DNA from: a virus
DNA: 64,000 nucleotides
IMG/VR virus record: IMGVR_UViG_3300045988_141926
Span: 380-64,379 of that record
Reading direction: 5' to 3' (one strand)
Under the pieces are notes generated by a model. That model did not search any database. It was not told the origin of the DNA and saw only the letters and a program-made list of their open reading frames with translations. Both the position numbers and the translations under genes were made by a program. Below are positions 35,531 to 52,440 of the stretch, piece after piece. Every line of letters starts with the position of its first letter. Position 1 is the stretch's first letter.

Positions 35531-35853
35531 GTTTTGGTGAGAGTTTGTACCAGCCAAACAAAAAAATAAAAATCAAAAAAAATTTTTTCCCGAAACCCAC
35601 CCCCCCCGGTCGGTTTTTATCTGAGAAAAAATCTGAACACTATCGAGGCCTTCTTGGGCTTGGCGCACGCGGAAAGGCTAGACCATCCCCAATACAGCCC
35701 CTCAACTCACAGGACCGCGAATGGCTGTCGCGGTCCTCATTCGCAATAAATACAAACTCCACAAAAAATCTCTCGCAAATTTGTGTATTCTGCCAATAGA
35801 CAAGCATCCTGAAATCTGGTATAATAGTATCATCAATCAAGGAGGAATAGTCT

Positions 35854-37302: not shown

Positions 37303-37405
37303 AAAAATAGGGCGCAAGCCCTATTTTTTTTTTGAAAAAACTATTGACAAATCCCGCAACAGATGTTATAATGAATACAGAAATTAAGAAATGAGGTACA
37401 TAAAA

Positions 37406-37540: not shown

Positions 37541-37648
37541 CAGGGCGCAAGCCCTGTTATTTTTTTTTATTTTTTTTGAAAAAACTATTGACAAACACAA
37601 ATAAGCGTGTTATAATAAATACAGAAATTAAGAAATGAGGTATACAAA

Positions 37649-37837: not shown

Positions 37838-38067
37838 GCGTCCTATTTTTTTGCTGTTGGATTGTTAAAATTTTAACGAGCATCGTCGCGCTCATCAGGC
37901 ACGTGGCGCTCCGAAATATTATACCACAGCAGTCCACCAGTTGTCAAGAGAAAAATGCGAAAATTTCGCACAAAATTCGCCATCCCGATTTGTATAGTCT
38001 GCCAATAGACAAAATGAAATAAGCGTGTTATAATGAATACAACAAAACAACAAAGGAGATACACACT

Positions 38068-38376: not shown

Positions 38377-38486
38377 AATAATAGGGCGAAAGCCCTATTA
38401 TTTTTTGAAAAAATTTTGAAAAAGGTATTGACAAATCCCGAAATAGGTGCTATAATTAAACCATCAAAAGAGAGGAGCTAAACGCT

Positions 38487-38678
38487 ATGACAAACTTTGA
38501 ACAGTATCTCGAAAACCTGATGGGCATGAAGAAAGCGGAAATCATCAACGAGGGCATCACCTGGGGCATCTGGGCGAACACCGAGGGCAACAAAGCCGAG
38601 CTGATGAAATGGAAAAAAGTTCTGCTGGCGCGGTGTCTCGCCGATAGGCTGGAAAGGCTGGAAAGGCGGGGCTACTAA
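38487..38678 (+). CDS. Hypothetical protein, 63 aa
   Basis: Promoter, SD GAGGAG, and a terminator. Confidence 0.5.
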   Translation: MTNFEQYLENLMGMKKAEIINEGITWGIWANTEGNKAELMKWKKVLLARCLADRLERLERRGY

Positions 38679-38744
38679 GACAAGGGCGAAAGCCCTTGTT
38701 TTTTTTATATGGCATTATGCCCATAATTCGGTTGAAAATTTTGG

Positions 38745-38940
38745 TCATTTTGCCTATTGACATTCTGCCCCATTTGTGTTATACTCGGTCGCGCGTCCAC
38801 GGCCCTGATGCGCGGAAATTCCATTATACCACAGCCCAGCCAATTTGTCAAGCATTTTGTGTTCGGTATTTTCAACAATTTTTTATCCCGAAATTTGTGC
38901 AATTTGACGGTTGACAACGCCCAGTAGGTGTGCTATACTT
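38745..38940. promoter_or_regulatory. Convergent-promoter palindromic module, copy 1
   Basis: Rightward TTGACA-17-TATACT. GC hairpin. Leftward TTGACA-17-TATAAT on the minus strand (plus-strand attata-N17-tgtcaa). Third rightward promoter TTGACA-17-TATACT. Confidence 0.6.
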
Positions 38941-38968
38941 ATACTATCAATTAAAGGAGGTCATTCAA

Positions 38969-39145
38969 ATGGCTACTATCGCAATCCTCGCAATCCTCGC
39001 CCTCGCTGGCTTCGCTGGCGTTCAGTGTGTCGGCGGGTATATGGTCTATCGTCAGACGCACGACTGGCACTTCCTCGTTGGCTCTATCCTATATGGCGTT
39101 GCCTGTATCGGTCTGGTGCGCTTCGTGTTCAATATGGGATGGTAA
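38969..39145 (+). CDS. 58-aa membrane protein with two transmembrane segments
   Basis: SD AAAGGAGG. Confidence 0.5.
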   Translation: MATIAILAILALAGFAGVQCVGGYMVYRQTHDWHFLVGSILYGVACIGLVRFVFNMGW

Positions 39146-39146
39146 T

Positions 39147-39470
39147 ATGGAAAACTACACTATGTCGAACCATCTGACAGAGGAGCGGGCTAACCGGCTC
39201 GCCCTCTTACAGGAATATCTCGGATATTCCGACCGCGTGATGATTGAGGTCATCGACCAGCGACAGACCGCTCGACTGCGTTTGCTCTCGACTGGTATTA
39301 TCCTCGTGCTGGACTTATATGAGAATTTCATCATCACCGCATACCCCGCAACTTTTGAACGGGCTGTCGCTATATACAAGAGTGCTGGCAAAAACCGTCT
39401 GCCCCAGCAGTTGGTTAAGCGCATCCGCAAGAATGAGGAACGCCACCCGGAATTTTATGTGGTAAAGTAG
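39147..39470 (+). CDS. Hypothetical protein, 108 aa. The only TAG-terminated ORF in the GC-rich block
   Basis: ORF. A TGA lies 5 codons after the TAG. Confidence 0.5.
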   Translation: MENYTMSNHLTEERANRLALLQEYLGYSDRVMIEVIDQRQTARLRLLSTGIILVLDLYENFIITAYPATFERAVAIYKSAGKNRLPQQLVKRIRKNEERHPEFYVVK

Positions 39471-39541
39471 AAAATTGGGGCTTGACAACAAGCCCCATTT
39501 CTGCTATAATGAGTATAACAAAGCAAGGGAGGACGAAAAAA

Positions 39542-39868
39542 ATGTCTGATGTAATTATCGCTGGTCTGCTTATGGCTGGTCTGATGGGTCTGCCTGTTGG
39601 TCTGATTATCGCCATTAGCCGCGACCACTGGTGGAGTAAGGTACTGGCTCTCATTATTTCCTGTGCTATCTTCTTCGGCTTCGGCTGTGCGTTCGGGCAA
39701 GAGAGTGTCAATGACCGCGACACATTTAACAACGGTGTATGTGTCAAGTGTGGTGGCGAATATCGTTTCAGTTCCTCTACTCGCTACCGTATGAGCGAAA
39801 CATTTTACTACACCTGTCAAGACTGCGGTTGGACAATCGAAACCAACTGCTTGATGAACAAAAATTAA
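39542..39868 (+). CDS. Membrane-anchored Zn-ribbon protein, 109 aa
   Basis: N-terminal transmembrane segment, CxxC-N25-CxxC. The promoter's -35 lies in a terminator loop. Confidence 0.5.
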   Translation: MSDVIIAGLLMAGLMGLPVGLIIAISRDHWWSKVLALIISCAIFFGFGCAFGQESVNDRDTFNNGVCVKCGGEYRFSSSTRYRMSETFYYTCQDCGWTIETNCLMNKN

Positions 39869-39937
39869 GATAGGGGCTTGACAAACAAGCCCTTATCTGT
39901 TATAATAGATAATACCAAGAGAAAGGAGAATATCAAA

Positions 39938-40168
39938 ATGGAATTTATTGAGTCCCCTATCTATGTCAAGTTGAGTGATGAAGAGCGCAATTCACTCCAT
40001 GAGGTTTATGTCATTCTGAATGACCTTGTAAACGCCGCCGAAGAGAATGACTGCGAGTATGTGGGCAATCCGTTGACTGGTGATGGCTATGGGCGGTTTG
40101 ATGTGAGCCAAGCCGCTGAAATTTGCCGAGTGTTCGCACCTGCTGAAAAGTTAGAAATCAGTAATTAA
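39938..40168 (+). CDS. Hypothetical protein, 76 aa (paralog A)
   Basis: Promoter and SD. Confidence 0.5.
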   Translation: MEFIESPIYVKLSDEERNSLHEVYVILNDLVNAAEENDCEYVGNPLTGDGYGRFDVSQAAEICRVFAPAEKLEISN

Positions 40169-40182
40169 AGGAGGGAAACAAA

Positions 40183-40410
40183 ATGGAAGTTATTAAAGCC
40201 CCCATCTATGTCAAAATGACAGAGAAAGAGCGGAAAACCCTGCGCGATGCCTATGACATTCTGAATGAATTGTATAACGTCATCGCCGATAATGACTGCG
40301 ACTATGTGGGCGATACTTGCGGGAATACCTATGACAGAGTGGACGTCGCGCTTACGGCGAATGTGCTTCAAATGCTTGCCCCCACTGAAAAAGTGGAAAT
40401 CGGTAAATAA
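40183..40410 (+). CDS. Hypothetical protein, 75 aa (tandem paralog B)
   Basis: About 45% identical to the 39938 product. Confidence 0.5.
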   Translation: MEVIKAPIYVKMTEKERKTLRDAYDILNELYNVIADNDCDYVGDTCGNTYDRVDVALTANVLQMLAPTEKVEIGK

Positions 40411-40498
40411 AAAAATGTGGGAGAAATCCCACATTTTTTATTGACAACAACCAGTAGGTGTGCTATAATGTAGACAATGAAACAAGGAGGTAAAAACA

Positions 40499-40705
40499 AT
40501 GACTGCATTTGAAATTCGAGAGGAACTGGCGAACCGCTACAATTTAGAAATCCGCAATGTCTGCTGTTATCACTGTCAATACTGGGGCTATAACTGCGGT
40601 AAGGTGCTGAACTCTCAGTGTGAGAGCCGATGCACCAAGAGAATGAAAGACTGGACGTGGGCAAGCCAGTATTGCCGTGGCTTCGTTCCGAAATCGGGAA
40701 AGTAA
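40499..40705 (+). CDS. Cys-rich protein, 68 aa
   Basis: Promoter and SD. Confidence 0.45.
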   Translation: MTAFEIREELANRYNLEIRNVCCYHCQYWGYNCGKVLNSQCESRCTKRMKDWTWASQYCRGFVPKSGK

Positions 40706-40729
40706 ATCAAATAAAAAGGAGATACACTT

Positions 40730-40978
40730 ATGAAAATCATTCTCATTATTTACATCATTGGTATTGTTCTCTACTGGCTGGGTATCGCAAGCATCATTTC
40801 GACTATGAAGAAAAACAAGGAACAGGCGCAAGAAGTATTCAAGAACCGGGGTGAAAGCAAGCGCAGTCCGTTCTCTAACTGGTTGACCGTTATCACCGGC
40901 TCAATCATTCCGATTTTTCATTACGCCGTAGCATTCCTCTACATTTTCAAACCGGATTTTATTTTTGAAAAGGAATAA
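40730..40978 (+). CDS. Membrane protein, 82 aa
   Basis: Two hydrophobic segments. Confidence 0.45.
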   Translation: MKIILIIYIIGIVLYWLGIASIISTMKKNKEQAQEVFKNRGESKRSPFSNWLTVITGSIIPIFHYAVAFLYIFKPDFIFEKE

Positions 40979-41034
40979 AAATCATTTGGGCTGGATGAAC
41001 AAAAATCCAGCCCAATTTTTGTATAATTTTCCAC

Positions 41035-41170
41035 TTGACATTTTCGGCCGCGCGCTCACGAATGTGGCGCCCGGCATTTTTGTCAATAGGTATACTTCAC
41101 AAATTTTTCGCCGCAATTTTGTGCATTTTGACGATTGACTTCTATCCCGTAATGTAGTACAATGGCTATA
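41035..41170. promoter_or_regulatory. Degenerate copy of the convergent-promoter module (copy 2)
   Basis: Retains the GC hairpin, the leftward -35 tgtcaa and the third promoter (TTGACT-17-TACAAT). Palindrome arms are lost. Confidence 0.4.
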
Positions 41171-41192
41171 CTGAAACAAGGAGGTATGTATT

Positions 41193-41411
41193 ATGGATTT
41201 AAAGCAAGCGTATCAGGCGGTTTTCGCAGACCTGCGTGAATGCCCTATGTTCCACGGGCGGTATGACGCCATCAATGGCAATCCCTACTTTATGTCCGGC
41301 ATTGAGACGGTTATGGAGGTAATCGCCAATCGCGCCTATGATGATGATTTTGCCGAGAAGTTCTCCAATGAATTTACTGACAATATGTTAAGGAGTAGAG
41401 AAAGTGTTTAA
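41193..41411 (+). CDS. Hypothetical protein, 72 aa
   Basis: ORF with an SD. Confidence 0.5.
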   Translation: MDLKQAYQAVFADLRECPMFHGRYDAINGNPYFMSGIETVMEVIANRAYDDDFAEKFSNEFTDNMLRSRESV

Positions 41412-41580
41412 TATTGTATTGGCACTAATCGCCGTAGGCGGGTGCGCGTGGGCGATTATCCGCTCTATTCTCTGGCGAAATGAAAAATACCTATCCACCG
41501 AGGAGCAAATCCGCGAAATGATGGATGAAACGTCTATTTCCACTGAAACGCTGTGGAATCTGTTTGACAGACTAAACTGA
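41404..41580 (+). CDS. Membrane-anchored 58-aa protein (GTG start)
   Basis: Overlaps the upstream stop. Confidence 0.3.
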   Translation: MFNIVLALIAVGGCAWAIIRSILWRNEKYLSTEEQIREMMDETSISTETLWNLFDRLN

Positions 41581-41594
41581 AAGGAGTAAGAACA

Positions 41595-41966
41595 ATGTTT
41601 GATTTTCAGAAACTGACGCTCAAAAAATGGGCGCGCAATTTCCTCATTCTGTGTGGTTTTATCCTGCTGGTGTATGGTATGTTCAAATCCACATTCGTGC
41701 TGTATGCGGCTGTCGCCATTCTGACCCTGACTATCGCGGGCGCGTGCGCGTATACTCTGATAAGTTCTATCCGCTGGGATTGGCGGTTGCGTGGCAAGCT
41801 GACAGAGGACGAGTATAAGGCATACCAATCCTGTGATAGATGGTTTGGTTTTCAAGATGATAAATACCTGCCGACTGATGAACAAATTGTATGGATGGCT
41901 GAAAACACAAACAATTCCTGTGATACCTTATGGAGTATGTATAATAAACTGACAGAGGGGCATTAA
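41595..41966 (+). CDS. Membrane protein, 123 aa
   Basis: SD GGAG, two transmembrane segments, and a terminator. Confidence 0.5.
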   Translation: MFDFQKLTLKKWARNFLILCGFILLVYGMFKSTFVLYAAVAILTLTIAGACAYTLISSIRWDWRLRGKLTEDEYKAYQSCDRWFGFQDDKYLPTDEQIVWMAENTNNSCDTLWSMYNKLTEGH

Positions 41967-42112
41967 CGCCCCTCTTGTCAGATTTAGTTCTGACTAACTG
42001 CACGGAACAAAAAACTAATCCTGTGAGAATTTAACTACGGCAAAAATTTTTCTTGACATTTTCAAATAAATGTGGTAGTATTATAATAGAAATTAAGAAA
42101 GGAATTGATACT

Positions 42113-42313
42113 ATGAACATCCCCTCTAAGCTGAAACAAGTTGCTAATGAGTTGGAGCAACTGTCCATCGAAATCGCCGCAGAAAAGAAAAACCTGTCCA
42201 ATAGCGAGGACAAGCAAGCCGCTCAAAATTTGAGTGATGATTTGTTTGAAATCCAGTCTCACCTGCGCACATCTATGTACTGGCTGGCGGAAGCTATGTT
42301 CGGGGAGGATTGA
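42113..42313 (+). CDS. Hypothetical protein, 66 aa
   Basis: TTGACA promoter, SD. Confidence 0.5.
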   Translation: MNIPSKLKQVANELEQLSIEIAAEKKNLSNSEDKQAAQNLSDDLFEIQSHLRTSMYWLAEAMFGED

Positions 42314-42789
42314 TGACTATGAACGCAATTATCCTATTCATTGTCTGCACCGCTGTGAATGTGGTGCTGTCCACCATCAAATCCATTCTCACGGTCAAGG
42401 GCAACAAGTGGGTAGCCGCTGGTATCAATGCGCTGACCTATGGCTTCTATTCCTATGTCATTATCCTGACCAACATTGACGGCGTTTCTACGCTGGCAAA
42501 GATGGGCATTACCGCCGCCTGTAATTTCATCGGCGTGCTGGCGGTCAAATGGGTGGAGGAGTTGGCGCGCAAGGAAAAATTGTGGAAGATTGAAATGACT
42601 GTCCCCACAAAGTATCGTGCCGCTGTTGATTTTGACCTGCGAGACATTCCCCACTCATACATTGAGATTAGCAACAAACACACGTTATTCAATTTCTATT
42701 GTGCCACGCAAGCCGAGAGCAAAAAGGTCAAGGACATTGTGGCGCAGTATGGCGCAAAATATTTCGTAGCAGAAAGCAAAAATCTGTAA
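42310..42789 (+). CDS. Membrane protein, 159 aa
   Basis: Four predicted transmembrane segments and a soluble C-terminus. Confidence 0.5.
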   Translation: MMTMNAIILFIVCTAVNVVLSTIKSILTVKGNKWVAAGINALTYGFYSYVIILTNIDGVSTLAKMGITAACNFIGVLAVKWVEELARKEKLWKIEMTVPTKYRAAVDFDLRDIPHSYIEISNKHTLFNFYCATQAESKKVKDIVAQYGAKYFVAESKNL

Positions 42790-42855
42790 AATAGGGGTTG
42801 ACAAATCAGCCCCTCTGTGTTAGAATGGTATCATCAAATAAGGGAGGACAACAAA

Positions 42856-43005
42856 ATGGAAATGATTAAAGTTTTCAATGACCACACTGGCGAAATCCTT
42901 GAAAAGACGTTCGTAGACCCCGCGGACGCGGACGACTTCGAGTTCATTCTCGACTTCCTTGAAGCGAGATACGAACGCTACCACAACGGCGAACAAATCT
43001 ACTAA
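42856..43005 (+). CDS. Hypothetical protein, 49 aa
   Basis: The promoter's -35 lies in a terminator loop. SD AGGGAGG. Confidence 0.4.
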   Translation: MEMIKVFNDHTGEILEKTFVDPADADDFEFILDFLEARYERYHNGEQIY

Positions 43006-43018
43006 GGAGGGCGCGACA

Positions 43019-43216
43019 ATGGAAATCAAAGATGTGTACTACAATGTTGAGTGGTGGGGCATAACCACTTGGGGCGAACGCTTCACTAATAGCGAGTGGT
43101 TCAAGGACGAAAACGAAACTCTGTCGTTCATCGCAAATGACCTGGCAAATGACCCGCTTGTTCGTGGAGCAACCTTCACCACACACAAAACCATCGTATT
43201 TAAGAGAGGTGAATAA
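43019..43216 (+). CDS. Hypothetical protein, 65 aa
   Basis: SD GGAGG. Confidence 0.45.
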   Translation: MEIKDVYYNVEWWGITTWGERFTNSEWFKDENETLSFIANDLANDPLVRGATFTTHKTIVFKRGE

Positions 43217-43217
43217 A

Positions 43218-43427
43218 ATGATTACTATTCTGATAATGGTTATTGCCCTTGGCATTTCGTTCCTGTTTACTGCTGGGCTGGTCTGGCTTCTCTGCTGGCT
43301 TCTCCCTATGATTGGCATCGCGTCCATCGGCTCTATCGCCATCGTGTTTTCGTGGAAACTGGCGTTGGTCATTTGGCTCATTATCGCACTCCTACGCTCT
43401 ATTTTCAGCATCACTGTCAAGAAGTAA
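43218..43427 (+). CDS. Membrane protein, 69 aa
   Basis: Hydrophobic. Confidence 0.45.
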   Translation: MITILIMVIALGISFLFTAGLVWLLCWLLPMIGIASIGSIAIVFSWKLALVIWLIIALLRSIFSITVKK

Positions 43428-43469
43428 TAATTGAAAAATCTCCCAAATTTAGGAGATTTTTTTTGTTCA

Positions 43470-43690
43470 TTTTACCTATTGACAAACGCCCCTATTTGTG
43501 CTATACTCAGCCGAGCGCCCACGGTCCTGGCGCTCGAAATTTCCATTATACACCCTGCCAGCAATTTTGTCAATAGGTAAATTGAACAAATTTGACCAAA
43601 CACACATCCCGAAAGTTTGTGCAAAATAACCAACGAAAATTTGACAATTCTAAAAATTTTTTGTATAATAATGTCAATGACATAGATGGG
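43470..43690. promoter_or_regulatory. Convergent-promoter palindromic module, copy 3
   Basis: Same architecture with an 8-bp GC stem. Confidence 0.6.
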
Positions 43691-43704
43691 AGGATGGTCT
43701 AAAA

Positions 43705-44448
43705 ATGGACTATTACGTTTACATAACAACAAATAAAATTAACGGCAAACAATACATTGGGTAGCACAAAGGACGCCCAGACGATAACTATTTAGGTAGT
43801 GGAACAACTATACTAAAAGCAATCAGCAAGTATGGCAAGGAGAATTTTACTAAAAGTGTTTTGTGTTTTTGTGAAACAAGAGAAGAAGCCGACGCAAAAG
43901 AACGAGAATACATCCAATTATACAACGCAGTAAATGATGATAATTTTTATAATAATGCGGAAGGTGGCACAGGTGGAGACGGCTGGCGCAGTTGTCAAAG
44001 ATGGCTGGAACAACATCCAGAAGAAGCGCAAGCCATGTATAAACGAAATGGGGAACATTTGCGGAAATGGTGTGATACTCATCCAGAAGAATACAAAGAA
44101 AAATGTATTAAGCCAATGTTAGAAGCAAGTCATAAGCGATTAAAAGAAAATCCTGAACTCGTTAAACAACAAGTAATAAGATTAAATCAGGCAAAAGAAA
44201 AATGGCAACAAGAACATCCAGAAGAGCACCAAGCACAAGTAAATGAATGGCGAAAGGCTGGAAGTATTGCTAATAGTAAAGCAGTAATTTGTTTAACTAC
44301 TAATCGTGTATTTGAGTCTCAATCAGCGGCGGCTCGATACTATGGCGTTCCACAAAGCAACATTAGTAAATGTTTGAAAGGAGAGCGTAAAAGCGCGGGA
44401 GTAGACCCTGATACGGGTGAAAAATTATTTTGGGAATTTGTAAAATAA
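43705..44448 (+). CDS. GIY-YIG homing endonuclease with a NUMOD-like C-terminal helix-turn-helix. In-frame TAG at ~43762
   Basis: YVYITTNKINGKQYIG-TAG-HKG matches the GIY-YIG motif. C-terminal region ...QSNISKCLKGERKSAG. Confidence 0.7.
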
Positions 44449-44512
44449 CTCTTGACAAATAGGAGAATAGGCGTTATAATGTAGATACAATAAAACGAAG
44501 GAGACAAAAAGT

Positions 44513-44959
44513 ATGACTATTTACCTCGATCTCGATGGGACGGTGATTGATTTTTACGGCGTCCCCAACTGGTTGGAGTGCCTCGAAGCACAGGACAGCA
44601 CACCATATCGTGTGGCAAAGCCCCTTGTGCATCTGTCCACCCTCGCCCGCTATCTGAACCGCTTACAGGCGCGGGGCTACAATATCGGCATCATCAGTTG
44701 GCTGTCCAAGAGCGGAACGGATAAGTTCAACGCCGAAGTAGCCGAGGTCAAGCGGGAATGGCTGGCAAAGCATCTCCCCAGCGTTCAGTGGGACGAAATC
44801 CATATTGTCCCCTATGGCGTCCCCAAGTCCAACTGTGCGACCTGCCCCAACGCGATTTTGTTCGATGATGAACAGCGAAATCTCAATGAGTGGACGGCAA
44901 ACACCCACAATATGGCATACAACGCCAACCTGCTTATGGAAATCCTGCGAAACCTGTAA
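44513..44959 (+). CDS. HAD-superfamily 5'-nucleotidase-like phosphatase, 148 aa
   Basis: DLDGTV motif I and a C-terminal FDDE. Confidence 0.55.
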   Translation: MTIYLDLDGTVIDFYGVPNWLECLEAQDSTPYRVAKPLVHLSTLARYLNRLQARGYNIGIISWLSKSGTDKFNAEVAEVKREWLAKHLPSVQWDEIHIVPYGVPKSNCATCPNAILFDDEQRNLNEWTANTHNMAYNANLLMEILRNL

Positions 44960-45071
44960 AAAAAATAGCAAATAGGGGTTGACAATCTCACCCCTATTTG
45001 CTATAATATGTAATGTAATTAAGGTATGGGACACGATGGTAAACCCAACCAAGAGAAAAGGAGAATGAACA

Positions 45072-45728
45072 ATGAAAAATATCTACTGCACGCTGGACAC
45101 TGAAACGGTAGGCGGCGCGGCTCACCCCACGGGAATGTATAATGTGGGCGCGATTATCCACGACCGCAAGGGCGAAATCCTTGCCACCACTTCCCTGCTG
45201 GTGATGGAGCATTATGACGAAATCGCCACCGATGGCTATGCCAAGAAGAATTTTCCGGTATATGCCGAACGGCTCAAAGCTGGTGAAATCTCCGCTATCG
45301 CCACGGAGCGCGAAGCCTATGAGGTAATCAAAAACCTGTGCGACCATTACGGCGTTCGCTATGTGATGGCATACAATTCCGGTTTTGACTTCTGCAAGAC
45401 CTGTTTCCGCGACCTGCTGGACACTTTCGAGTTCATCGACCTGTATCTCATGGCACTGGAAACTATCACCCACAAAAAGTCCTATGCGGACTATTGCCGA
45501 GAAAATGGCAAGCGTTCCAAGAATGGCAAGACCTGTGCAACCTCTGTCGAAGCGGTGTATGGTTATCTCCACGGCAATCCTGACTTTGAGGAAGAACACA
45601 CCGCCCTGTCTGACGCTATGCAGGAAATGGAAATTTTCCTTGCTTGTCAGAAGATGCACAAGCGATACACCAAGAACGTCCACGCATGGGACGCGCCCTT
45701 TGAGGTAAAATGTTTTCCCAAGTTTTGA
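45072..45728 (+). CDS. DnaQ-like (DEDDh) 3'-5' exonuclease, 218 aa
   Basis: Exo I LDTET, Exo II YNSGFD, Exo III HTALSDA. Confidence 0.65.
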   Translation: MKNIYCTLDTETVGGAAHPTGMYNVGAIIHDRKGEILATTSLLVMEHYDEIATDGYAKKNFPVYAERLKAGEISAIATEREAYEVIKNLCDHYGVRYVMAYNSGFDFCKTCFRDLLDTFEFIDLYLMALETITHKKSYADYCRENGKRSKNGKTCATSVEAVYGYLHGNPDFEEEHTALSDAMQEMEIFLACQKMHKRYTKNVHAWDAPFEVKCFPKF

Positions 45729-45795
45729 GATTGGGGCTTGACAGCCCCTTTCTCATGTGGTATAATGGCTATACTAAGACAAGGAGGTAAGCGAA

Positions 45796-46008
45796 ATGCC
45801 TAAGCAGGTTCTTTTCAAGAGCGACCATTCAGATGGCGTTCAGGCAGGTATTCAGGTAGATAATGGAAATGTTATCTGTGCCTGTTGTGGTGGAGTATTC
45901 GAGGGCGAGGAGACTACCATTCTCCACGAGTTCGACTATTGGGTTGACTTTTCCGAATGGATTGGCGACCCTGACCTGACTGAATACCGCAAGCACGACA
46001 CCCCGTAA
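45796..46008 (+). CDS. Hypothetical protein, 70 aa
   Basis: Promoter, SD. Confidence 0.5.
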   Translation: MPKQVLFKSDHSDGVQAGIQVDNGNVICACCGGVFEGEETTILHEFDYWVDFSEWIGDPDLTEYRKHDTP

Positions 46009-46122
46009 AAAAAGTTTGGAATGGGGGTTGACAACGCCCCCATTCCATGCTATAATAACATTACAAATTCAAGGTAGGGGAAACGATGGTAAGCCCCACC
46101 AATAGAAAAGGAGAAAAAAACT

Positions 46123-46656
46123 ATGAAAGCTCGCTATGCTAACCTCAGAAATTTCAACCGCACGGTCAAGACCTACAAGTGGCTGGTAGACCTGTTCGGA
46201 AACAAGGAGTTCACTTCCGAGGACTTCTCCAAGGCAAAGCACGACTACCGGCGGTACACCTACAATTCCCTGTCGTTCCTGCGGGATGAGGGTATCATCA
46301 AGGTGGTACGCACCGAACAGACCACCAAGGAAATCAAGCTCGACCCGTGGGACGCGGAAAGCTGGATGATTGACAAGAATGGCAACGCCCTGATGACCGA
46401 GTACAACTGGATGCGTTTGCCGGAAGTGGCACAGTCCGCTCTGCTGGCTCTGAATGGTCAGGACTTCCGCGTTGAGCGCAAGGACACCAAGACCGTGGAA
46501 AAGGAGAAGCTTATTTACACGGTCAATCCCGCTGGTATGTTGAACTGGCGCAAGGGCTATGGGCGTCTGTTGGCTATGAGAGCTGACGCGCTGGCGGGCG
46601 AAATCGTCAGACTGAACGAAAAGCGGGACGCATTCCTTGCTTGTCAGATGGACTAA
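46123..46656 (+). CDS. Hypothetical protein, 177 aa
   Basis: Conserved structured leader. Confidence 0.55.
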   Translation: MKARYANLRNFNRTVKTYKWLVDLFGNKEFTSEDFSKAKHDYRRYTYNSLSFLRDEGIIKVVRTEQTTKEIKLDPWDAESWMIDKNGNALMTEYNWMRLPEVAQSALLALNGQDFRVERKDTKTVEKEKLIYTVNPAGMLNWRKGYGRLLAMRADALAGEIVRLNEKRDAFLACQMD

Positions 46657-46689
46657 AAAAATGAGGGGATTTTCCCCTCATTTTTTGTG

Positions 46690-46885
46690 CATTTTTACCT
46701 ATTGACAAATGCGCCTGGGTGTGGTATAATGGCCGGCCGATTTCGCGCGTCTCGGCCGGAATTCACCATTATACACCCCGTCAGCAATTTTGTCAAGAGT
46801 TTTTTTACACAAATTTTTTTATTTATTTTTCCCGAAACTTGTGCAGTCTGACTATTGCAATCTGCGCTCACCTATGGTACAATAC
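46690..46885. promoter_or_regulatory. Convergent-promoter palindromic module, copy 4
   Basis: TTGACA-17-TATAAT, GC hairpin with an 8-bp stem, leftward attata-N17-tgtcaa, third promoter. Confidence 0.6.
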
Positions 46886-46985
46886 ATAATGTCAAGAGGG
46901 GACAGCAAGTTGCTTCTCGGGGGAGCCACGCTGGCGGGTGTGATAACTCGGTAACTGACCCGCATTTCCCCTCTTGACAATCTTC
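46886..46985 (+). ncRNA. Small non-coding transcript 1
   Basis: The 5' GUCAAGAGGGGA pairs with a 3' UCCCCUCUUGAC. The 3' arm is the next promoter's -35. Confidence 0.45.
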
Positions 46986-47007
46986 GTCAAAGGTGCTATA
47001 ATGGGTA

Positions 47008-47100
47008 GTGTCAAGAGGGGAACGGCACGGCAGATGCGTCTAATGTGTCGCTTGTGTAGACAGGTTTCAGAAATTTGAAAAAATTTCAAAAAACCTCTTG
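47008..47100 (+). ncRNA. Small non-coding transcript 2
   Basis: Same 5' motif. Closing stem caagagg/cctcttg. Confidence 0.45.
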
Positions 47101-47138
47101 ACAATCCCCAGCACCCGTGCTATAATTGATAATGTCAA

Positions 47139-47400
47139 GAGGGGAACAGCCCCACCCAAGAAATCCGCGGGTCGCGAACCGTGCGAGAGTAAAGGAAGTA
47201 AGCCCTATACCAGCGCAGTAAAGCCTGAGCATGGAGCGGAAAGTGAGCAATTTGTGAGCAAGGTACAGACCGGAACTTCTAACCGGACTGCGACGCAATA
47301 ACATGGCAATACTCTTATCCGTATTCCGGGGTTGTAAGTCGTTGTGAATACTTGTGGAGCGTTCCCCTGTTGGCACTATCAAAAAAAATCAAGAATTTTG
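47139..47400 (+). ncRNA. ~260-nt non-coding transcript 3
   Basis: Same 5' motif. 3' GUUCCCC complement, then an A-run. No SD-preceded ORF. Confidence 0.4.
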
Positions 47401-47495
47401 AAAAAAAGTCTTGACAATCCCAGCGCAAGCTGTTATAATAGATAATGTCAGGAGGGCAAAGCCCTCAAAACCAAATGGAGAAAGGAATTGATACT

Positions 47496-47876
47496 ATGGC
47501 TAACACTAACACCACCACCCGCAAGCCCACCAAGCGCGATAATTTCACCGCCCTGCTGAAACTGTCCGAGGTCAAGGCTGACCCCAAGCTGGTGGAGTTC
47601 ATCACCCACGAAATCGACCTGCTCGACCGCAAGAACACCGTGGACAAGAAGCCCACCAAGACCCAGCAGGAGAATGAGGTCATCAAGACCACTGTCCTGT
47701 CCGCTATGGAGCGCGACCGCCTGTACTCCATCAGTGAGATGCTCAAAGAGTTCCCTGTCTGCAAGGACATGAGCAATCAGAAGCTGTCCTCCCTCGTTCG
47801 GCAGATGGTGCTGGACAAGCAGGTGGAGCGCGTGGAGGATAAGCGCAAGGCGTTCTTCCGCAAGGTGAGCGAGTAA
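47496..47876 (+). CDS. Cassette gene A1, 126 aa
   Basis: ELLDRKNTVDKKPT motif. The mRNA has a 5' stem-loop. Confidence 0.55.
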   Translation: MANTNTTTRKPTKRDNFTALLKLSEVKADPKLVEFITHEIDLLDRKNTVDKKPTKTQQENEVIKTTVLSAMERDRLYSISEMLKEFPVCKDMSNQKLSSLVRQMVLDKQVERVEDKRKAFFRKVSE

Positions 47877-47929
47877 ACCGCCCAAGGGTGGGGAGAAATC
47901 CCCACCCTATCCCCGAAAGGAGTAAGCGC

Positions 47930-48286
47930 ATGAATGAGCGTATTGCCGACCTTATGCGAAAGCTGGATTGCACCGAAGCCGAAGCCAAGGATATTATTGT
48001 CCAAGATGCTATTATCGACAAGGGCGGCAATCCGTTTCCGCTGACCGAGGAACAGGAAAAGGCAAGCAAGAAAGCGCGTGGAGTAGGACGCCAGCCGACC
48101 GCATACAAGTTCGCACCAAGAGAAAGAAAGGCTAATCTCACGAAGCAGGGCATTATCACCTTGCTGACCGAGACACTGACCACATACGGCGCGACTGACC
48201 TGAACGTGAGCAACGCGGAGCGCGAATTTTTATTCACGCTTGATGGAACAAAATACAAGGTTGTGCTGTCGTGTCCGCGCAAGTGA
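47930..48286 (+). CDS. Cassette gene B1, 119 aa, basic
   Basis: PTAYKFAPRERKAN motif. Confidence 0.55.
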   Translation: MNERIADLMRKLDCTEAEAKDIIVQDAIIDKGGNPFPLTEEQEKASKKARGVGRQPTAYKFAPRERKANLTKQGIITLLTETLTTYGATDLNVSNAEREFLFTLDGTKYKVVLSCPRK

Positions 48287-48317
48287 GGGAGAGAAATCTC
48301 CCTCATTTTTTTTGTGT

Positions 48318-48520
48318 ATTTTGACTATTGACAAATCCGGGCGCGCGTGGTATAATTCGGTCGCGCGTCCACGTATGTGGCGCTCGAAATTTCTATTATA
48401 CACCCCACTGGCAATTTTGTCAAGCGTTTTTTTGCACAAATTTCAAAGATTGAAAATCCCGTTTTTTGTAGGTATTGCCTATTGTAATTCTCCTGTAATG
48501 TGTTATAATGATGATACTGA
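48318..48520. promoter_or_regulatory. Convergent-promoter palindromic module, copy 5
   Basis: Same architecture. Third promoter TTGTAA-16-TATAAT. Confidence 0.6.
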
Positions 48521-48535
48521 AAGGAGCGATGAACG

Positions 48536-49219
48536 ATGGAGTTTCCGAGAGTTCAGGATTTTATCCTGATTATCCAGCAGGCGGTATCTGAAAAGCCTGT
48601 GCGGGTCAGAAGTGCTGACAGACTATCCCGCGCTATCCACCGAGAATATCCTAATGTCAAGATAGCTACCAGCAACGGCGCAAGCAAGGAATGTCTGGTA
48701 TTCCCTGATTTGGGCTATGTTCTCAAATGGTCTACGGAGACGCGGGACGCAGAGCGCGAAGTGGCTGTGTATAAGAAAGCCGTAGAAGCAAACCTCGCGG
48801 ATTTTTTCCCCGCCACCGAGTTGGCTGGCTACATTGTTCCCCCGCGTAAGTGTGATGACCCTATCGCGTTCACCGCTCAACAGATTATCACCAACAGCGC
48901 ACACAAAATCATGTGGAATGAGGGCGGGATAAAAACTCGTCTCTTGCGTATCGCAAAGACTGTCCCCGACTGTCGCATCAAGCAGATTGAGCGGCAGTTC
49001 CGCAAAGCCGACCTCAATGGCTATGGGCGTGAGCTGGACGGACTGTGGGCGAAAGTTGCCGTTTCTATCTACGGCAAGCGCAAGGTTATCGCCCTCTGTG
49101 AGTTCGTTAAAAAGTATCACATCAACGACCTCCACGGCTCAAACATCGGCTACATTGGCATTTCTCCTGTTATCCTCGATTTCTCCGGCTATGGCGTCTG
49201 TGATGGTTTAGAGTTTTGA
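48536..49219 (+). CDS. Protein-kinase-like fold phosphotransferase, 227 aa
   Basis: HINDLHGSNIGY and ILDFSGYG, plus a lysine in YVLKW and a glutamate in EREVAVYKK. Confidence 0.45.
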   Translation: MEFPRVQDFILIIQQAVSEKPVRVRSADRLSRAIHREYPNVKIATSNGASKECLVFPDLGYVLKWSTETRDAEREVAVYKKAVEANLADFFPATELAGYIVPPRKCDDPIAFTAQQIITNSAHKIMWNEGGIKTRLLRIAKTVPDCRIKQIERQFRKADLNGYGRELDGLWAKVAVSIYGKRKVIALCEFVKKYHINDLHGSNIGYIGISPVILDFSGYGVCDGLEF

Positions 49220-49264
49220 AAAAAACTCTTGACAAACAGCCCCGCCTGTGCTATACTAACATCG

Positions 49265-49612
49265 TGAGGTGAGAAAAATGAAATGGCGATTGTATCGTCC
49301 CCCTTAGTAGTCAATCATAGTTTGATTAGATAGTTTAATGATTGATTATATTTATACCCCAGCCAAGATGGAGTTTAATAGAGTGTTTGTCCCACTCAAT
49401 AATTTCTTCTCAACCGCCATCTTGAACCCCTCGTTAGAAATTGGGACTGGGTACGAAGTTCTAACCACATTCACCGCGTGCCAAGAAAGACCATCTATGT
49501 GGGCATTGCGCCCGTCTGATTAGGTCTGCTGTGTAGAAGTGGGCTGGCTGTCCGGACGGCTGGCGAACATCAACAGGGGAACCAGCGTAGTAGCCAACTA
49601 CGCTGGTTTATT
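49265..49612 (+). ncRNA. ~340-nt non-coding transcript candidate
   Basis: TTGACA-17-TATACT upstream and a terminator at ~49575-49612. Only a 61-aa ORF with no SD. Confidence 0.35.
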
Positions 49613-49617
49613 TTTGT

Positions 49618-49810
49618 GTATTTTGCCTATTGACAAATGCGCTCAAATGTGGTATAATGGGTCGGGCGCTCACGAACGTGGCGCCCGAAATTTCCATTAT
49701 ACCACGCGGCACAAATTTTGTCAAGTGTTTTTTTGCACAAATTTTAGATGTTGAAAATCCCATTTTTTGTGAGTATTGACTATTGTAATTTGCCCAAGGG
49801 TGTGGTAATA
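49618..49810. promoter_or_regulatory. Convergent-promoter palindromic module, copy 6 (canonical)
   Basis: Perfect consensus on both strands: 12-bp arms gtggtataatgg/ccattataccac and hairpin cgggcgc-N11-gcgcccg. Third promoter TTGACT-18-TGgTAATAT. Confidence 0.65.
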
Positions 49811-49988
49811 TATAATTGTTCCAAGGGAGAGGGCGAGAGCCTCCGGCGGGGCGTGTACCTTAAAAAAATTCCACAAATCCGAAAAAAAGTCTTGACAAGG
49901 CTTCGGATATGTGTTAGAATATAGATGTTCCAAGAGGGAAACAACAATAAGGTGGGCGACACCTAAAAACGCAGAAAGGGTTGATACT

Positions 49989-50408
49989 ATGACTAACACT
50001 ACTTCCTCTGTGCGCCTGACCAAGCGCGACTACTTCACCGCCATTCTGTCCAAGGTGGATATGGACGCCACTTATGACATTCCCAAGGGCGATGCCACTG
50101 TCAAGGTTTCCGGTGCTGATGTGGCGGGCTTCCTGAACCACGAGCTGGAACTGCTCGACCGCAAGAACACCGTGGACAAGAAGCCCACCGCCACCCAGCT
50201 GGCAAACGAGGGTATCAAGGCTGACATCAAGGCGTTCCTGGACGCCCACAAGGGCGAGAAGTACACCGTCTCCGCTCTGATGAAGTCTGTCCCCGCTATC
50301 GCCGATGCGTCCAATCAGAAGGTTTCTTCTTTGGTGCGTCAGATGGTCATTGACGGTCTGGCAGAGCGTATCGAAGATAAGCGCAAGGCGTATTTCACCG
50401 CCAAGTGA
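49989..50408 (+). CDS. Cassette gene A2, 139 aa
   Basis: Shares ELLDRKNTVDKKPT and QKVSSLVRQMV with A1. Confidence 0.55.
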   Translation: MTNTTSSVRLTKRDYFTAILSKVDMDATYDIPKGDATVKVSGADVAGFLNHELELLDRKNTVDKKPTATQLANEGIKADIKAFLDAHKGEKYTVSALMKSVPAIADASNQKVSSLVRQMVIDGLAERIEDKRKAYFTAK

Positions 50409-50472
50409 GACAAGAGGGGGGGGAGATAACCTCTCCCCCTCTCTCCCCTAAAATCTGAAAAGGCGGTGTTTT

Positions 50473-50871
50473 ATGGCTGACATTTCCAAAACCGAATGGC
50501 TGAAAAACGCTATGGCGAAAATGGGCTGGACTGCCGATGAAGCGGAAGCCGTGTGGAACTCTGACCGAGAAATCGACAAGGGTAAGAAACAGGATTTTGA
50601 CCTGTCGAAAGAACAGCTTAAAATCGCCCAAAAATTCGCCAAGACTGGCACACGCAAGACCCCCACCGCATACAAATTCACCACAAGGGAACGCAAGGCA
50701 AATCCCACAAAAGCGGCTATTATCGCTGAATTGGCAACATTTTTGACCGAAAATAGCGAAAATGCCTGCGAAAATGTGGAAATTACCAACAAAGAGCGTC
50801 AAATTGCGTTCAAAATCGGTGAAAACTCCTATGAACTGACGCTTGTGCAGAAGCGCAAGCCGAAAAGTTGA
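50473..50871 (+). CDS. Cassette gene B2, 132 aa
   Basis: Shares PTAYKF-RERKAN with B1. Confidence 0.55.
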   Translation: MADISKTEWLKNAMAKMGWTADEAEAVWNSDREIDKGKKQDFDLSKEQLKIAQKFAKTGTRKTPTAYKFTTRERKANPTKAAIIAELATFLTENSENACENVEITNKERQIAFKIGENSYELTLVQKRKPKS

Positions 50872-50921
50872 GAAAATGGGGGAGAAATCCCCCATTTTCC
50901 CCGGAAATCGAGGAAAAAAGT

Positions 50922-51266
50922 GTGAAAAACAAGGAATTTTTGTATGTTGGACACTATTATGATGAAAATGGCGTCTACATTCTGAAAATAGGCACGACTA
51001 ACGACTTAAAGCGCAGACAGCGAGAGCATACACGAAACTACAAGAAATCGCCTGTTTACCGTCTACCGAAAACTGGCAAGTTCATTTACGATTTTTCGCT
51101 ACCGCTCTCCAAGTACAATACTCTACGCTACGAGGACAAAAACCGTGAACGCTGGCAAAAACTGGGATACGGCGAGTTTGTGAGAAATGACAGATTTGCG
51201 TGTCCTGTGAAGCCGAAATCTGTTGAAATTACCATTCGTCGAACTTACCAAATCGCTCTCGATTGA
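50922..51266 (+). CDS. Small GIY-YIG domain protein (~115 aa, GTG start)
   Basis: FLYVGHYYDENGVYILKIGTTNDLKRRQREH. Confidence 0.5.
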   Translation: MKNKEFLYVGHYYDENGVYILKIGTTNDLKRRQREHTRNYKKSPVYRLPKTGKFIYDFSLPLSKYNTLRYEDKNRERWQKLGYGEFVRNDRFACPVKPKSVEITIRRTYQIALD

Positions 51267-51289
51267 GGGCGATTTTTTTTTATTTAATT

Positions 51290-51440
51290 TGACTATTGAC
51301 AACGCCCTCTGACTGTGGTATAATGGGTCGGGCGCTCACGGATGTGGCGCCCGGCATTTTTGTCAATACACATTTTCAACAATTTTTCCGGCGAAAGTTT
51401 GTATAAATTGACTATTGCATTTTGTCCCGAAATGCGCTAT
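51290..51440. promoter_or_regulatory. Degenerate copy of the convergent-promoter module (copy 7)
   Basis: TTGACA-17-TATAAT and a hairpin. The 3' arm is deleted. Confidence 0.45.
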
Positions 51441-51491
51441 ACTATAAACAATCTGAGGGAGCTGGAACCCACCAACAGCACGGAGGCATCT

Positions 51492-52100
51492 ATGAATAAG
51501 AGCCAGTTTTTTGACCACGAAATCGAGTTCATTCAGTCCGAGGATTTGCGCTCATTCGTGCGCTATTACTTCGATTGTATCGTTCCCGACTATTTCTGGA
51601 CTATCGGCGCGAGTTCTTCCGGCAAGTTCCATCCGGCTATGAGCCAAGGCGAGGGCGGTTTGGTACGCCACACTAAGGCGGTTGCGTGGTTTTGTGAGGA
51701 ATTGCTCCGCATGAGCCAGTGGGCGTATCTCACTGACGAGCGCAAGGACTACGCAAGAGTTGCCTGTCTGCTCCACGATACAGCCAAGTATGGTTTACAC
51801 GAGTTCGACAAGGAGTTGTACCCCAAGCACGGGGAAATGGCGGCTGACCAAGTACGCCGTTCGTGGCTGGTCTTTTTCGAGAGCGACTGCCCCTATGAGT
51901 TGACGCAAGCCATCAAGTCCCACATGGGTCAATGGACTACCGACAAGGCGAACAGACCTTTCACTCCTATTGATAGGTTGGTACACATGGCTGACTATGT
52001 GGCAAGCCGAGCGTTTATCGACATTCCGGCAATCAACGCTGACTATAACGACAAGGCGGAGTTAAACCAGATTGTGCCTGACCTGCCGTGGGAAGATTAA
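51492..52100 (+). CDS. HD-domain phosphohydrolase, 203 aa
   Basis: H...HD...D motifs. Confidence 0.55.
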   Translation: MNKSQFFDHEIEFIQSEDLRSFVRYYFDCIVPDYFWTIGASSSGKFHPAMSQGEGGLVRHTKAVAWFCEELLRMSQWAYLTDERKDYARVACLLHDTAKYGLHEFDKELYPKHGEMAADQVRRSWLVFFESDCPYELTQAIKSHMGQWTTDKANRPFTPIDRLVHMADYVASRAFIDIPAINADYNDKAELNQIVPDLPWED

Positions 52101-52134
52101 TTTGTTAAGGGTGGAGAAATCCACCCTTAATTTT

Positions 52135-52440
52135 TGTTCATTTTACCTATTGACAAATTGGGCCAGGTGTGGTATACTAAAAGGGGAGGTACAACGGGCC
52201 GAGCGCGGGCGCTGCGGTCCGAATTCCCGATCTGTACCCCCATATGGAAAATTTTCCGTAATTCTAGCGGCCTTCATATGCGCCCATATTTTCCCAAAAC
52301 CCGAGGCACCGCTCGGTACCCATATGCCGCCCGGTTTGACATAAAAAAAAATTTATGTTATAATGATAAAAAAAACCATTTTTTTTCTCACTTGACTTTT
52401 AAAAAAATTTTTTGTATAATATGTATATACAAAATGAAAA
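52135..52440. promoter_or_regulatory. Divergent copy of the convergent-promoter module (copy 8) with a 3x CATATG repeat, followed by two AT-rich promoters
   Basis: TTGACA-17-TATACT, then a GC-rich insert in place of the palindrome, then AT-rich promoters before the 52453 gene. Confidence 0.4.

Follow-up and report, generated by a model that had tools for sequence, protein, structure and literature searches.

A repeated hairpin and promoter cassette at early-operon boundaries of phAss-1-related TAG-recoded gut siphophages

We analysed a stretch of 64,000 nucleotides from the IMG/VR virus record IMGVR_UViG_3300045988_141926 (positions 380 to 64,379 of that record), hereafter the window, in whose numbering all coordinates are given. 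It derives from a gut siphophage that is recoded from TAG to Gln and related to phAss-1; when TAG is read through, the longest minus-strand open reading frames (ORFs) in 1-33.5 kb grow from 368 to 2757 amino acids. phAss-1 was the sole match in the annotated phage collection, and this match falls on the element described here, a repeated cassette in which a GC-rich hairpin, abutted by consensus promoters, follows the terminator of one operon and precedes the promoter of the next. The cassette is real, strongly conserved and not previously described (a literature search found no description of it), and it marks early-operon boundaries in phAss-1-related TAG-recoded gut siphophages.

All modules of the window lie inside an island (35.6-52.35 kb) with a GC content of 44-50%, flanked by DNA of 25-33% GC. 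The island genes are small, mostly unannotatable and found on the plus strand only, each with its own promoter and terminator. phAss-1 itself has a GC content of ~50% throughout, shows no contrast of the island type and carries only two or three weaker cassette copies. Its hosts were predicted to be Clostridia in the phAss-1 paper, and the promoter consensus of the cassette, TTGACA with an extended -10, supports a probable Bacillota (Clostridia) host.

The cassette and its copies in the window

Three promoters are distinguished: PR1, the sense promoter before the hairpin; PL, the leftward antisense promoter; and PR2, the downstream operon promoter. They share one layout, consisting of a TTTGTGCA-like motif, 9 nt, TTGACA, 17 nt and a TG-extended TATAAT. 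Five modules (38757, 43479, 46702, 48328 and 49630) have PR1 and PL face to face, with a rightward TTGACA-17-TATAAT or TATACT opposed across the GC hairpin by a perfect leftward TTGACA-17-TATAAT. The copy at 37918 has the leftward promoter only, and four degenerate copies (35711, 41035, 51296 and 52150) retain the hairpin. The features are listed with their coordinates, the strand of promoters, and the basis of the call:

35711..35737, hairpin of a degenerate copy, 27 nt, GC, at the left edge of the island; folding free energy (dG) -18.3; without flanking PR1 or PL
35797..35825 (+), PR2-type promoter TAGACA-17-TATAAT with a TTTGTGTA motif upstream (promoter scan)
37862..37879, palindrome TTGTTAAAATTTTAACGA of copy M0p, in PR1's place; same layout in relatives L346, L359 and L377
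37883..37914, M0p hairpin, imperfect; dG -10.2 (plus strand) and -12.3 (minus strand)
37918..37947 (-), M0p PL, TTGACA-18-TATAAT (promoter scan)
38006..38034 (+), M0p PR2, TAGACA-17-TATAAT (promoter scan)
38757..38785 (+), M1 PR1, TTGACA-17-TATACT (promoter scan)
38789..38815, M1 hairpin, 27 nt (folding)
38823..38851 (-), M1 PL, perfect TTGACA-17-TATAAT (promoter scan)
38911..38939 (+), M1 PR2, TTGACA-17-TATACT, followed by a ribosome-binding site (RBS) and gene 38970 (promoter scan)
41035..41086, M2d, terminator-like: TTGACA, hairpin 41047-41075, T-run and TGTCAA, both -10 hexamers lost (sequence, folding)
41135..41163 (+), M2d PR2, TTGACT-17-TACAAT (promoter scan)
43479..43507 (+), M3 PR1, TTGACA-17-TATACT (promoter scan)
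43512..43536, M3 hairpin with a perfect 8-bp stem (folding)
43545..43573 (-), M3 PL, perfect (promoter scan)
46702..46730 (+), M4 PR1, perfect (promoter and full-pattern scans)
46733..46759, M4 hairpin CCGGCCGA/TCGGCCGG, 27 nt (folding)
46768..46796 (-), M4 PL, perfect (promoter and full-pattern scans)
46855..46883 (+), M4 PR2, TTGCAA-17-TACAAT (sequence)
48328..48356 (+), M5 PR1, perfect (promoter and full-pattern scans)
48361..48387, M5 hairpin, 27 nt, imperfect (folding)
48395..48423 (-), M5 PL, perfect (promoter and full-pattern scans)
48482..48509 (+), M5 PR2, TTGTAA-16-TATAAT (promoter scan)
49630..49658 (+), M6 PR1, perfect (promoter and full-pattern scans)
49662..49688, M6 hairpin TCGGGCGC/GCGCCCGA, 27 nt (folding)
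49696..49724 (-), M6 PL, perfect (promoter and full-pattern scans)
49783..49811 (+), M6 PR2, TTGTAA-17-TAATAT, 58 nt past the PL -35 (read from sequence)
51296..51324 (+), M7d PR1, perfect, in a copy of type C as defined below (promoter scan)
51327..51367, M7d, terminator-like: hairpin 51327-51355, then gcaTTTTTGTCAA; PL -10 and spacer gone (sequence, folding)
51415..51443 (+), M7d PR2, TTGCAT-17-TATACT (read from sequence)
52150..52178 (+), M8d PR1, TTGACA-17-TATACT (promoter scan)
52195..52221, M8d hairpin, 27 nt; PL -10 mutated to GATCTG; without TGTCAA (sequence)

These elements far exceed chance. With up to two mismatches allowed, GTGGTATAATGG has 29 matches vs 4.9 expected, and 82 promoter-like sites lie in 35.0-53.5 kb vs 29.9 expected. 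The same interval holds 25 perfect (12/12) TTGACA/TATAAT sites, of which one has a spacer of 18 nt and the other 24 have one of 17 nt. Six perfect promoters are on the minus strand, with their -35 hexamers at 38851, 43573, 46796, 48423 and 49724 (17-nt spacer) and at 37947 (18 nt). The full 24-base pattern TTGACA-N17-TATAAT-N30-48-ATTATA-N17-TGTCAA occurs three times vs 0.00 in shuffles, which bears out the face-to-face promoter and hairpin module proposed by an earlier sequence-only reading of this DNA; M1 and M3 are two further full patterns in which the rightward -10 is TATACT.

Several details of that reading needed revision. It had counted eight copies, and a tenth, consisting of hairpin and PR2 only, was found at 35711-35825. 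The leftward promoter assigned to six copies is present in all of them, with the stated 17-nt spacer in five and 18 nt at 37947. The two -10 hexamers, thought to be about 32 bp apart, are separated by 37-38 nt in all five face-to-face copies. Degenerate copies do keep the hairpin but not all of them the TGTCAA, which is missing at 52150; both -10 hexamers are lost at 41035, only the leftward -10 and spacer at 51296, and at 52150 the leftward -10 is mutated. A terminator precedes every copy, but it has the claimed bidirectional look in some only. The third rightward promoter (PR2) is present downstream as described. The 12-bp inverted repeat also exists, but it amounts to two opposed consensus sequences of an extended -10 plus GG discriminator. 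Both promoters look selected, as had been supposed: hexamers, 17-nt spacing and TG extension are conserved, and the 17-nt spacers of PR1 and PL, read from the sequence, are not mutually complementary.

Hairpin conservation, architectures and gene setting

The search of other phages suggested by the sequence-only reading found the architecture in many gut phage contigs of 80-200 kb, with up to 10 copies per genome. A first viral scan returned 59 unique face-to-face copies. A complete scan anchored on PL and the hairpin's start returned 53 unique copies, of which 32 have PR1 opposite and 21 have none; in these 21 the hairpin adjoins the reversed terminator of the upstream gene or a TTGTTAAAATTTTAACAA palindrome. 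The converse scan upstream, for PR1, gave 51 copies of PR1 plus hairpin, 24 with PL and 27 without. The face-to-face pair is thus not the conserved unit it was taken for; that unit is the hairpin together with one or two promoters that abut it.

A census of viral loci for a strong promoter followed by a GC hairpin yielded 287 unique instances in 113 loci and three types: A (PR1 and PL), B (PL only) and C (PR1 only, the hairpin usually followed by a T-run). On the near side 65 instances are of type A and 55 of type C, on the far side 63 are of type A and 82 of type B; the three architectures coexist in similar numbers and are interconvertible. The 113 loci stem from phAss-1-like gut phage contigs and hold >250 distinct copies of the promoter-hairpin unit. 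Tails with at least five T in 9 nt make up 58% in type C, 6% in type A (R side) and 4% in type B. The sequence AGTTTTTTGTCAAG is a typical tail of type C, AAATTTCC that of face-to-face copies. What remains of PL in type C is its -35 hexamer, and the window copies with hairpins at 41047 and 51327 belong to this type. Because a T-run usually follows, the type C hairpin looks like a canonical intrinsic terminator; the combination of GC hairpin and U-tract is found in 58% of type C copies, with 41047 and 51327 fitting it, and in only 6% of face-to-face copies.

The core hairpin is GC-rich, usually 27 nt long (exactly so in 60 of 112 copies) and has 8-10 perfect Watson-Crick pairs. The main stem of 112 unique PL-anchored copies comprises 953 Watson-Crick, 11 G.U and 11 A.C pairs, and 75 non-redundant copies contain 67 distinct 5' arms. 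Since copies were chosen for having a stem, the selection itself accounts for part of the percentage paired, though not for the diversity of pair types. When 34 hairpins, all of 27 nt, are aligned without gaps, 66 cells are changed on both sides of a pair vs 20.8 after shuffling (0 of 500 shuffles reached 66), and in slid controls of this alignment just 26-46% of cells pair. A hairpin follows 102 of 108 perfect promoters that are succeeded by GG..AATT vs 176 of 1084 other perfect promoters. Conservation is partial at the stem top (CGC/GCG) and in the loop (nnCGnnCGTnn on the PL strand). The folding energies of the two strands are about equal (p = 0.096). An apparent excess of G.U pairs on the L strand (99 vs 32) was traced to flanking and loop pairs and discarded, the main stem having 11 vs 11. 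Rfam 15 gave no match at gathering thresholds in the window, with only sub-threshold chance matches in 35.5-52.5 kb, and a tRNA scan gave no match.

The cassette is oriented. The PR1 -10 ends 2-4 nt before the stem and is followed by its GC-rich sequence; the PL -10 ends 7-8 nt before it (in 96 of 112 PL copies) and is followed by a conserved GGAAATTT and an AT-rich initial transcribed region. This asymmetry of hairpin offsets agrees with gene direction in 45 cases vs 5, at odds with the strand-symmetric conservation claimed earlier. Among 34 non-redundant copies the PL -10 is TATAAT in 33, and the PR1 -10 is TATAAT in 16, TAAAAT in 12 and TATACT in 4. From this consensus -10 of PL, and the weaker -10 and GC-rich discriminator of PR1, PL is predicted to be the stronger promoter. 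PL and PR2 stand back to back, a modal distance of 58 nt separating their -35 hexamers, and the hairpin sits after the terminator of the preceding operon and before the PR2 that serves the following one. PL is antisense to the flanking ORFs on both sides in all PL-only cases inspected; in the window the genes flanking the modules are all on the plus strand, and no plausible leftward ORF was found at the modules.

When transcription is assumed to start 7 nt after the -10, the predicted PL RNA has a leader of 4-5 nt followed by the complete hairpin. The predicted PR1 RNA begins within the 5' arm and keeps a median of 5 of 8 stem pairs, and such a start shifts the mean dG of the hairpin in type A from -16.3 to -8.5 kcal/mol, and in type C with a T-run from -17.0 to -10.4 kcal/mol. 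In type A the predicted start sites are ~24-26 bp apart. Since a distance of 22 bp was too short in the study of helD (Sudzinova et al., Nucleic Acids Research (NAR) 2026, PMC12802891), binding of polymerase to PR1 and PL is probably mutually exclusive in type A, and the earlier claim that both cannot be occupied jointly holds up with the -10 hexamers at their corrected distance of 37-38 nt.

In close relatives (L047, L027/L303, L356 and L364; ~90% identity) the modules occupy the same positions. Set against the window, these genomes show single-gene indels and a tandem duplication, with ends in other promoter and terminator repeats; the indel breakpoints 39528/39867 and 37413/37540 are outside the face-to-face modules. 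Distant relatives (30-60% protein identity) carry the PL unit 300-800 nt upstream of nearly every member of a winged-helix family, and in more distant relatives the module DNA is the only similarity at the nucleotide level. Because its position is kept in close and distant relatives alike, the cassette appears to be an old, vertically kept regulatory region and not a freely shuffling joint.

The winged-helix family is represented in the window by a two-gene operon downstream of M4 (47496..48286, plus strand), which encodes a 126-aa winged-helix protein (47496-47876) and a 118-aa partner (47930-48286), and by a paralogous operon downstream of M6 (49989-50871; paralogue 49989-50408 and partner 50473-50871). 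The structure predicted for the winged-helix protein (predicted local distance difference test score, pLDDT, 85.5) has a C-terminal winged helix of the MecI/MarR/PadR kind. The partner had no noteworthy sequence match to solved structures, and its model (pLDDT 71) had no meaningful fold match; its family comprises >3400 unannotated metagenomic proteins. Both operon genes adjoin cassettes in distant relatives too and are thus co-conserved with them.

Other features of the locus are recorded here in their own right. At 33585-33700 the recoded minus-strand block and the plus-strand block diverge; here the minus strand has a perfect TTGACA-17-TATAAT and the plus strand a near-consensus promoter. 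Given the former, the recoded block appears to use a host-type promoter too. Stop codons of the island (35600-52350) are ordinary (TAA 19, TGA 9, TAG 1), and structural genes elsewhere need TAG as an amino acid codon. A low-GC GIY-YIG homing-endonuclease gene (43640-44448) with an in-frame TAG and its own promoter sits right after M3, in the place of PR2, and is missing from the close relatives L047 and L027. Nine TTGTTAAAAATTTAACAA palindromes lie in 35974-36762 and one more in M0p (37862-37879), with 26 matches vs 1.85 expected; this stretch is free of ORFs and contains a T-free tract (~36050-36150) and a C-free, G-rich tract (36190-36262). The array may be an operator array or an origin. 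In relatives a TTGTTAAAAATTTAACAA palindrome is found where PR1 would be.

Further repeats accompany the small genes. Six terminator hairpins carry the -35 of the next promoter in their loop (GGGGCTTGACAACAAGCCCC; 39476-39497, 39872-39893, 42793-42815, 44974-44996, 45733-45748 and 46022-46045), so that terminator and promoter overlap; relative L047 lacks the gene that two of them enclose (39543-39868). A tandem duplication of 244 bp (37320-37807) contains a promoter and small-gene cassette, its promoter/RBS stretches (37364-37405 vs 37608-37649) being 93% identical, and is present as one copy in L047. The leader of the winged-helix gene (46880-47495) contains three more perfect promoters (46974, 47098 and 47411), each followed by TGTCAAGAGGGGAAC, which is complementary to a downstream TTCCCCTCTTGACA or GTTCCCCTGTTGGCA; its products may be structured non-coding RNAs of ~100-260 nt, with no Rfam match. 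A non-coding unit of ~350 nt (49229-49609) with a promoter (49229-49257) and a strong terminator (49579-49609) contains no convincing ORF and had no Rfam match.

A proposed gate between operons and its rivals

We propose, with a probability of roughly 0.4, that the cassette acts as an oriented boundary insulator or gate that would stop rightward transcription between early operons. In type C, hairpin and U-tract would terminate polymerases that arrive from upstream. RNA started at PR1 would hold only a hairpin of about half the stability and could read on past the terminator, since its start within the 5' arm removes the full hairpin. In types A and B, PL would take the place of the U-tract and fire back across the boundary, blocking incoming polymerases and PR1 by occlusion and collision and also yielding a short antisense RNA. 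Only one promoter of type A would be occupied at a time, with PL dominant over PR1, an arrangement that resembles the antisense/sense pair of helD. U-tract and antisense promoter would then be functionally analogous right flanks of the hairpin, and PR2, back to back with PL at a fixed distance, would drive the downstream operon. Of the functions listed by the sequence-only reading, insulator and mutual-exclusion switch are still the best candidates, and its interpretation as a whole was partly right.

A number of points weigh against the gate. In type A, PR1 would be a strong sense promoter blocked by the model itself, and its purpose is unexplained unless PL is regulated. All transcription starts are predictions from promoter geometry. 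The window hairpins at 35711 and 41047 have no abutting -10 hexamer at all. Upstream terminators are not significantly more often bidirectional next to PL (43% vs 33%; p = 0.18), and the PL RNA would therefore have no defined 3' end in most copies. The constant length of 27 nt, the stem top and the loop bias exceed what a plain terminator or stabiliser needs and hint at a specific binding partner. Since G.U and A.C pairs are equally rare and both strands fold about equally well, these data do not separate a function of the RNA from one of the DNA. Bidirectional terminators had also been considered as a sign of a discrete PL RNA; as the difference was not significant, this line was dropped.

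The alternative that survives best, though unlikely, is that the hairpin RNA itself is the product and each copy a mini-gene for a short RNA, transcribed from one strand or the other according to cassette type. Such RNAs could act in trans, as a decoy or sponge for an RNA-binding protein of host or phage, a nuclease or an immune sensor, or in cis, as an OOP-like antisense RNA to the 3' end of the upstream mRNA. Nearly every hairpin is abutted, at a tight offset, by one consensus promoter or more, the promoter, hairpin and T-run of type C form a complete tiny transcription unit, and stems that are Watson-Crick on both strands are expected if either strand is transcribed. The constant hairpin length, conserved stem top, loop bias and multiple copies per genome fit as well. 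For a hairpin gene, however, a PR1 start inside the stem that halves stability would be odd, and for the same reason the paired hairpin RNAs suggested earlier are unlikely, the rightward RNA losing about half of its stability. Lower stems also differ among copies within one genome, so that any partner must read shape and stem top only, PL RNAs lack defined 3' ends, and there was no Rfam match.

We regard it as improbable that the cassette is a phage-specific device without described counterpart, either an array of mini-genes whose 5'-triphosphate GC-hairpin RNAs, transcribed from either strand, would flood the cell and titrate a host factor, or a set of polymerase-traffic sensors that time the early programme. 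The host factor may be a nuclease, an immune RNA sensor or an accessory protein of the polymerase, and stem top and loop may be read by a dedicated protein such as the products of the winged-helix operon.

Distinctly improbable, in our judgement, is that type A senses or times RNA polymerase traffic in the manner of helD. The high-traffic PL would repress PR1 until polymerase is depleted, inhibited or modified, e.g., by phage takeover factors or polymerase-targeting antibiotics; PL would then be arrested first, releasing PR1 and boosting the downstream operon. The helD and pps systems, which have been dissected by experiment, follow this logic, PL has the greater predicted strength of the two promoters, and cassettes lie upstream of the conserved operon of the winged-helix regulator. 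However, helD needs 45-55 nt between its -10 hexamers, more than the gap found here, and no module fits the helD motif. As types B and C have one promoter, traffic sensing cannot be the ancestral or general function.

It is very improbable that the modules are recombination joints like those of the T4-type stem-loop elements compared below, providing homology for the shuffling of small gene cassettes between phages. The island is hyperplastic, its indels and tandem duplication are flanked by repeats (e.g., 39528-39867 and 37413-37540), and module DNA is the sole nucleotide similarity to more distant relatives. The observed breakpoints, however, fall in other repeat classes and not in face-to-face modules, and modules stay upstream of the same gene family at 30-60% protein identity; exchange by homology would also leave the covariation of the hairpin and the fixed promoter offsets unexplained. 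The cassette-boundary recombination site suggested by the sequence-only reading is not supported for these modules: relatives keep them in synteny, and other repeats flank the single-gene indels.

Least probable of all is a DNA-level site (a hairpin, cruciform or fold-back with TTTGTGCA 9 nt before the -35 hexamers and AAAATTGCTGG in the PL spacer) for protein binding, replication priming or a promoter on single-stranded DNA: stems are perfectly Watson-Crick and do not tolerate G.U, TTTGTGCA keeps a fixed distance from all three promoters (with a palindrome TTTGTGCAAAATGCACAAA in relative L340), the downstream gene product is a predicted winged-helix DNA binder and a TTGTTAAAATTTTAACAA palindrome takes PR1's place in some copies, but 8-10-bp stems with 9-11-nt loops make poor cruciforms, a fold-back promoter would carry large internal loops, the PR1 and PL spacers being non-complementary, eight to ten origins in 17 kb are implausible and exact TTTGTGCA is weakly enriched in the window (8 vs 3.2 expected).

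A mimic of CRISPR repeats (an RNA anti-CRISPR) was rejected on stem diversity alone, stems differing within one genome (67 arms in 75 copies). This candidate and integron attC sites, N4-type hairpin promoters and Frpo-like single-strand promoters were set aside in view of variable stems, the lack of a conserved core site, long loops and non-complementary spacers. Some of the rivals of the gate model are compatible with one another.

Relation to known systems

How recoded and uncultivated gut phages regulate their genes has hardly been described, and the cassette provides a sharply defined, highly conserved, multi-copy cis-element in them. Its use of perfect host promoters is unusual, these being antisense, nested in a hairpin and probably mutually exclusive. 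It offers a handle on the partitioning and timing of early transcription in these phages and could supply compact natural insulator or switch parts for synthetic biology.

Face-to-face promoters also occur in bacteria. Bacterial contigs (L116-L235, mostly Oscillospiraceae and Ruminococcus) contain >120 loci with perfect face-to-face promoters 30-48 nt apart. These lie between divergent genes, have operator-like repeats in their spacers (e.g., TTACGAAATTTCGTAA) and lack a GC hairpin, and they therefore constitute a different class; face-to-face promoters between divergent genes appear to be a common switch layout in Clostridia. A separate multi-copy face-to-face family, found on a contig of a Thiobacillus metagenome-assembled genome and two IMG/VR contigs (L140, L239 and L274), has two GGCGCC-type direct repeats between its -10 hexamers and no hairpin, and was set aside.

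Closely spaced convergent phage promoters that interfere with each other's transcription are known from coliphage 186 (pR/pL) and P2 (Pe/Pc), where they form a single-copy, repressor-controlled lysis-lysogeny switch in which each promoter drives an operon. Whereas those promoters serve genes on both strands, PL drives none, and the single copy of 186 and P2 contrasts with a cassette that is repeated 8-10 times and whose hairpin fills the space between the starts. Lambda OOP and P22 sar are short non-coding RNAs made from constitutive promoters; they run counter to the early transcripts, overlap an adjacent gene at its end or leader, and have their own terminators, defined lengths and specific targets. 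The PL RNA, unlike them, has no defined 3' end in most copies, and its body is mostly the complement of another promoter.

The PeSL (promoter early stem-loop) elements of T4-type phages consist of a repeated stem-loop and a strong sigma-70-type early promoter among small non-essential genes, and they are defined by mediating indels, with mini-circles forming between neighbouring elements (PMC2839356, PMC4122927). They share with the cassette the repeated composite of stem-loop and promoter and the location among small ORFans in a hyperplastic early region. Both type C copies and the island's GGGGCTTGACA..GCCCC elements are PeSL-like. PeSLs, however, have no antisense promoter, and their stem-loop precedes the promoter, whereas that of the cassette is at the transcription start. 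Breakpoints lie within PeSLs, whereas the face-to-face modules are syntenic (L047, L027, L356 and L364) and breakpoints lie in other repeats; the cassette is not itself a PeSL.

The closest mechanistic relative is the 'rifampicin alarm' of helD and pps in Bacillus subtilis, a system of dual convergent promoters in which sub-inhibitory rifampicin induces the sense promoter (PMC12802891). In helD a stronger antisense promoter represses the convergent sense promoter by interference, and its antisense RNA ends near the terminator of the upstream gene (PMC12802891). The -10 hexamers are separated by 45-55 nt and the starts by 39 bp, so that both polymerases bind; del17, which shortens the distance between starts by 17 bp to ~22 bp, abolishes inducibility (PMC12802891). 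In five copies of the cassette, as in helD, two sigma-A/sigma-70 promoters converge within an intergenic stretch that lies <300 bp upstream of a gene. The antisense promoter is the stronger one in helD, whereas for PL greater strength is predicted from sequence only (TATAAT in 33/34 copies vs 16/34 for PR1). With 37-38 nt between the -10 hexamers instead of 45-55 nt the cassette is close to the non-functional del17, and for this reason it falls outside the helD group; the published motif (TTGN3-N17,18-[AT]6-N45,55-[AT]6-N18,19-N3CAA; PMC12802891) matches none of the modules. A central covarying hairpin, a multi-copy arrangement and a divergent third promoter are absent from helD and present in the cassette, and single-promoter forms are as common as the dual form, unlike in helD. 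The cassette is thus not a member of the helD group but would extend its convergent-promoter logic to viruses, in a tighter geometry.

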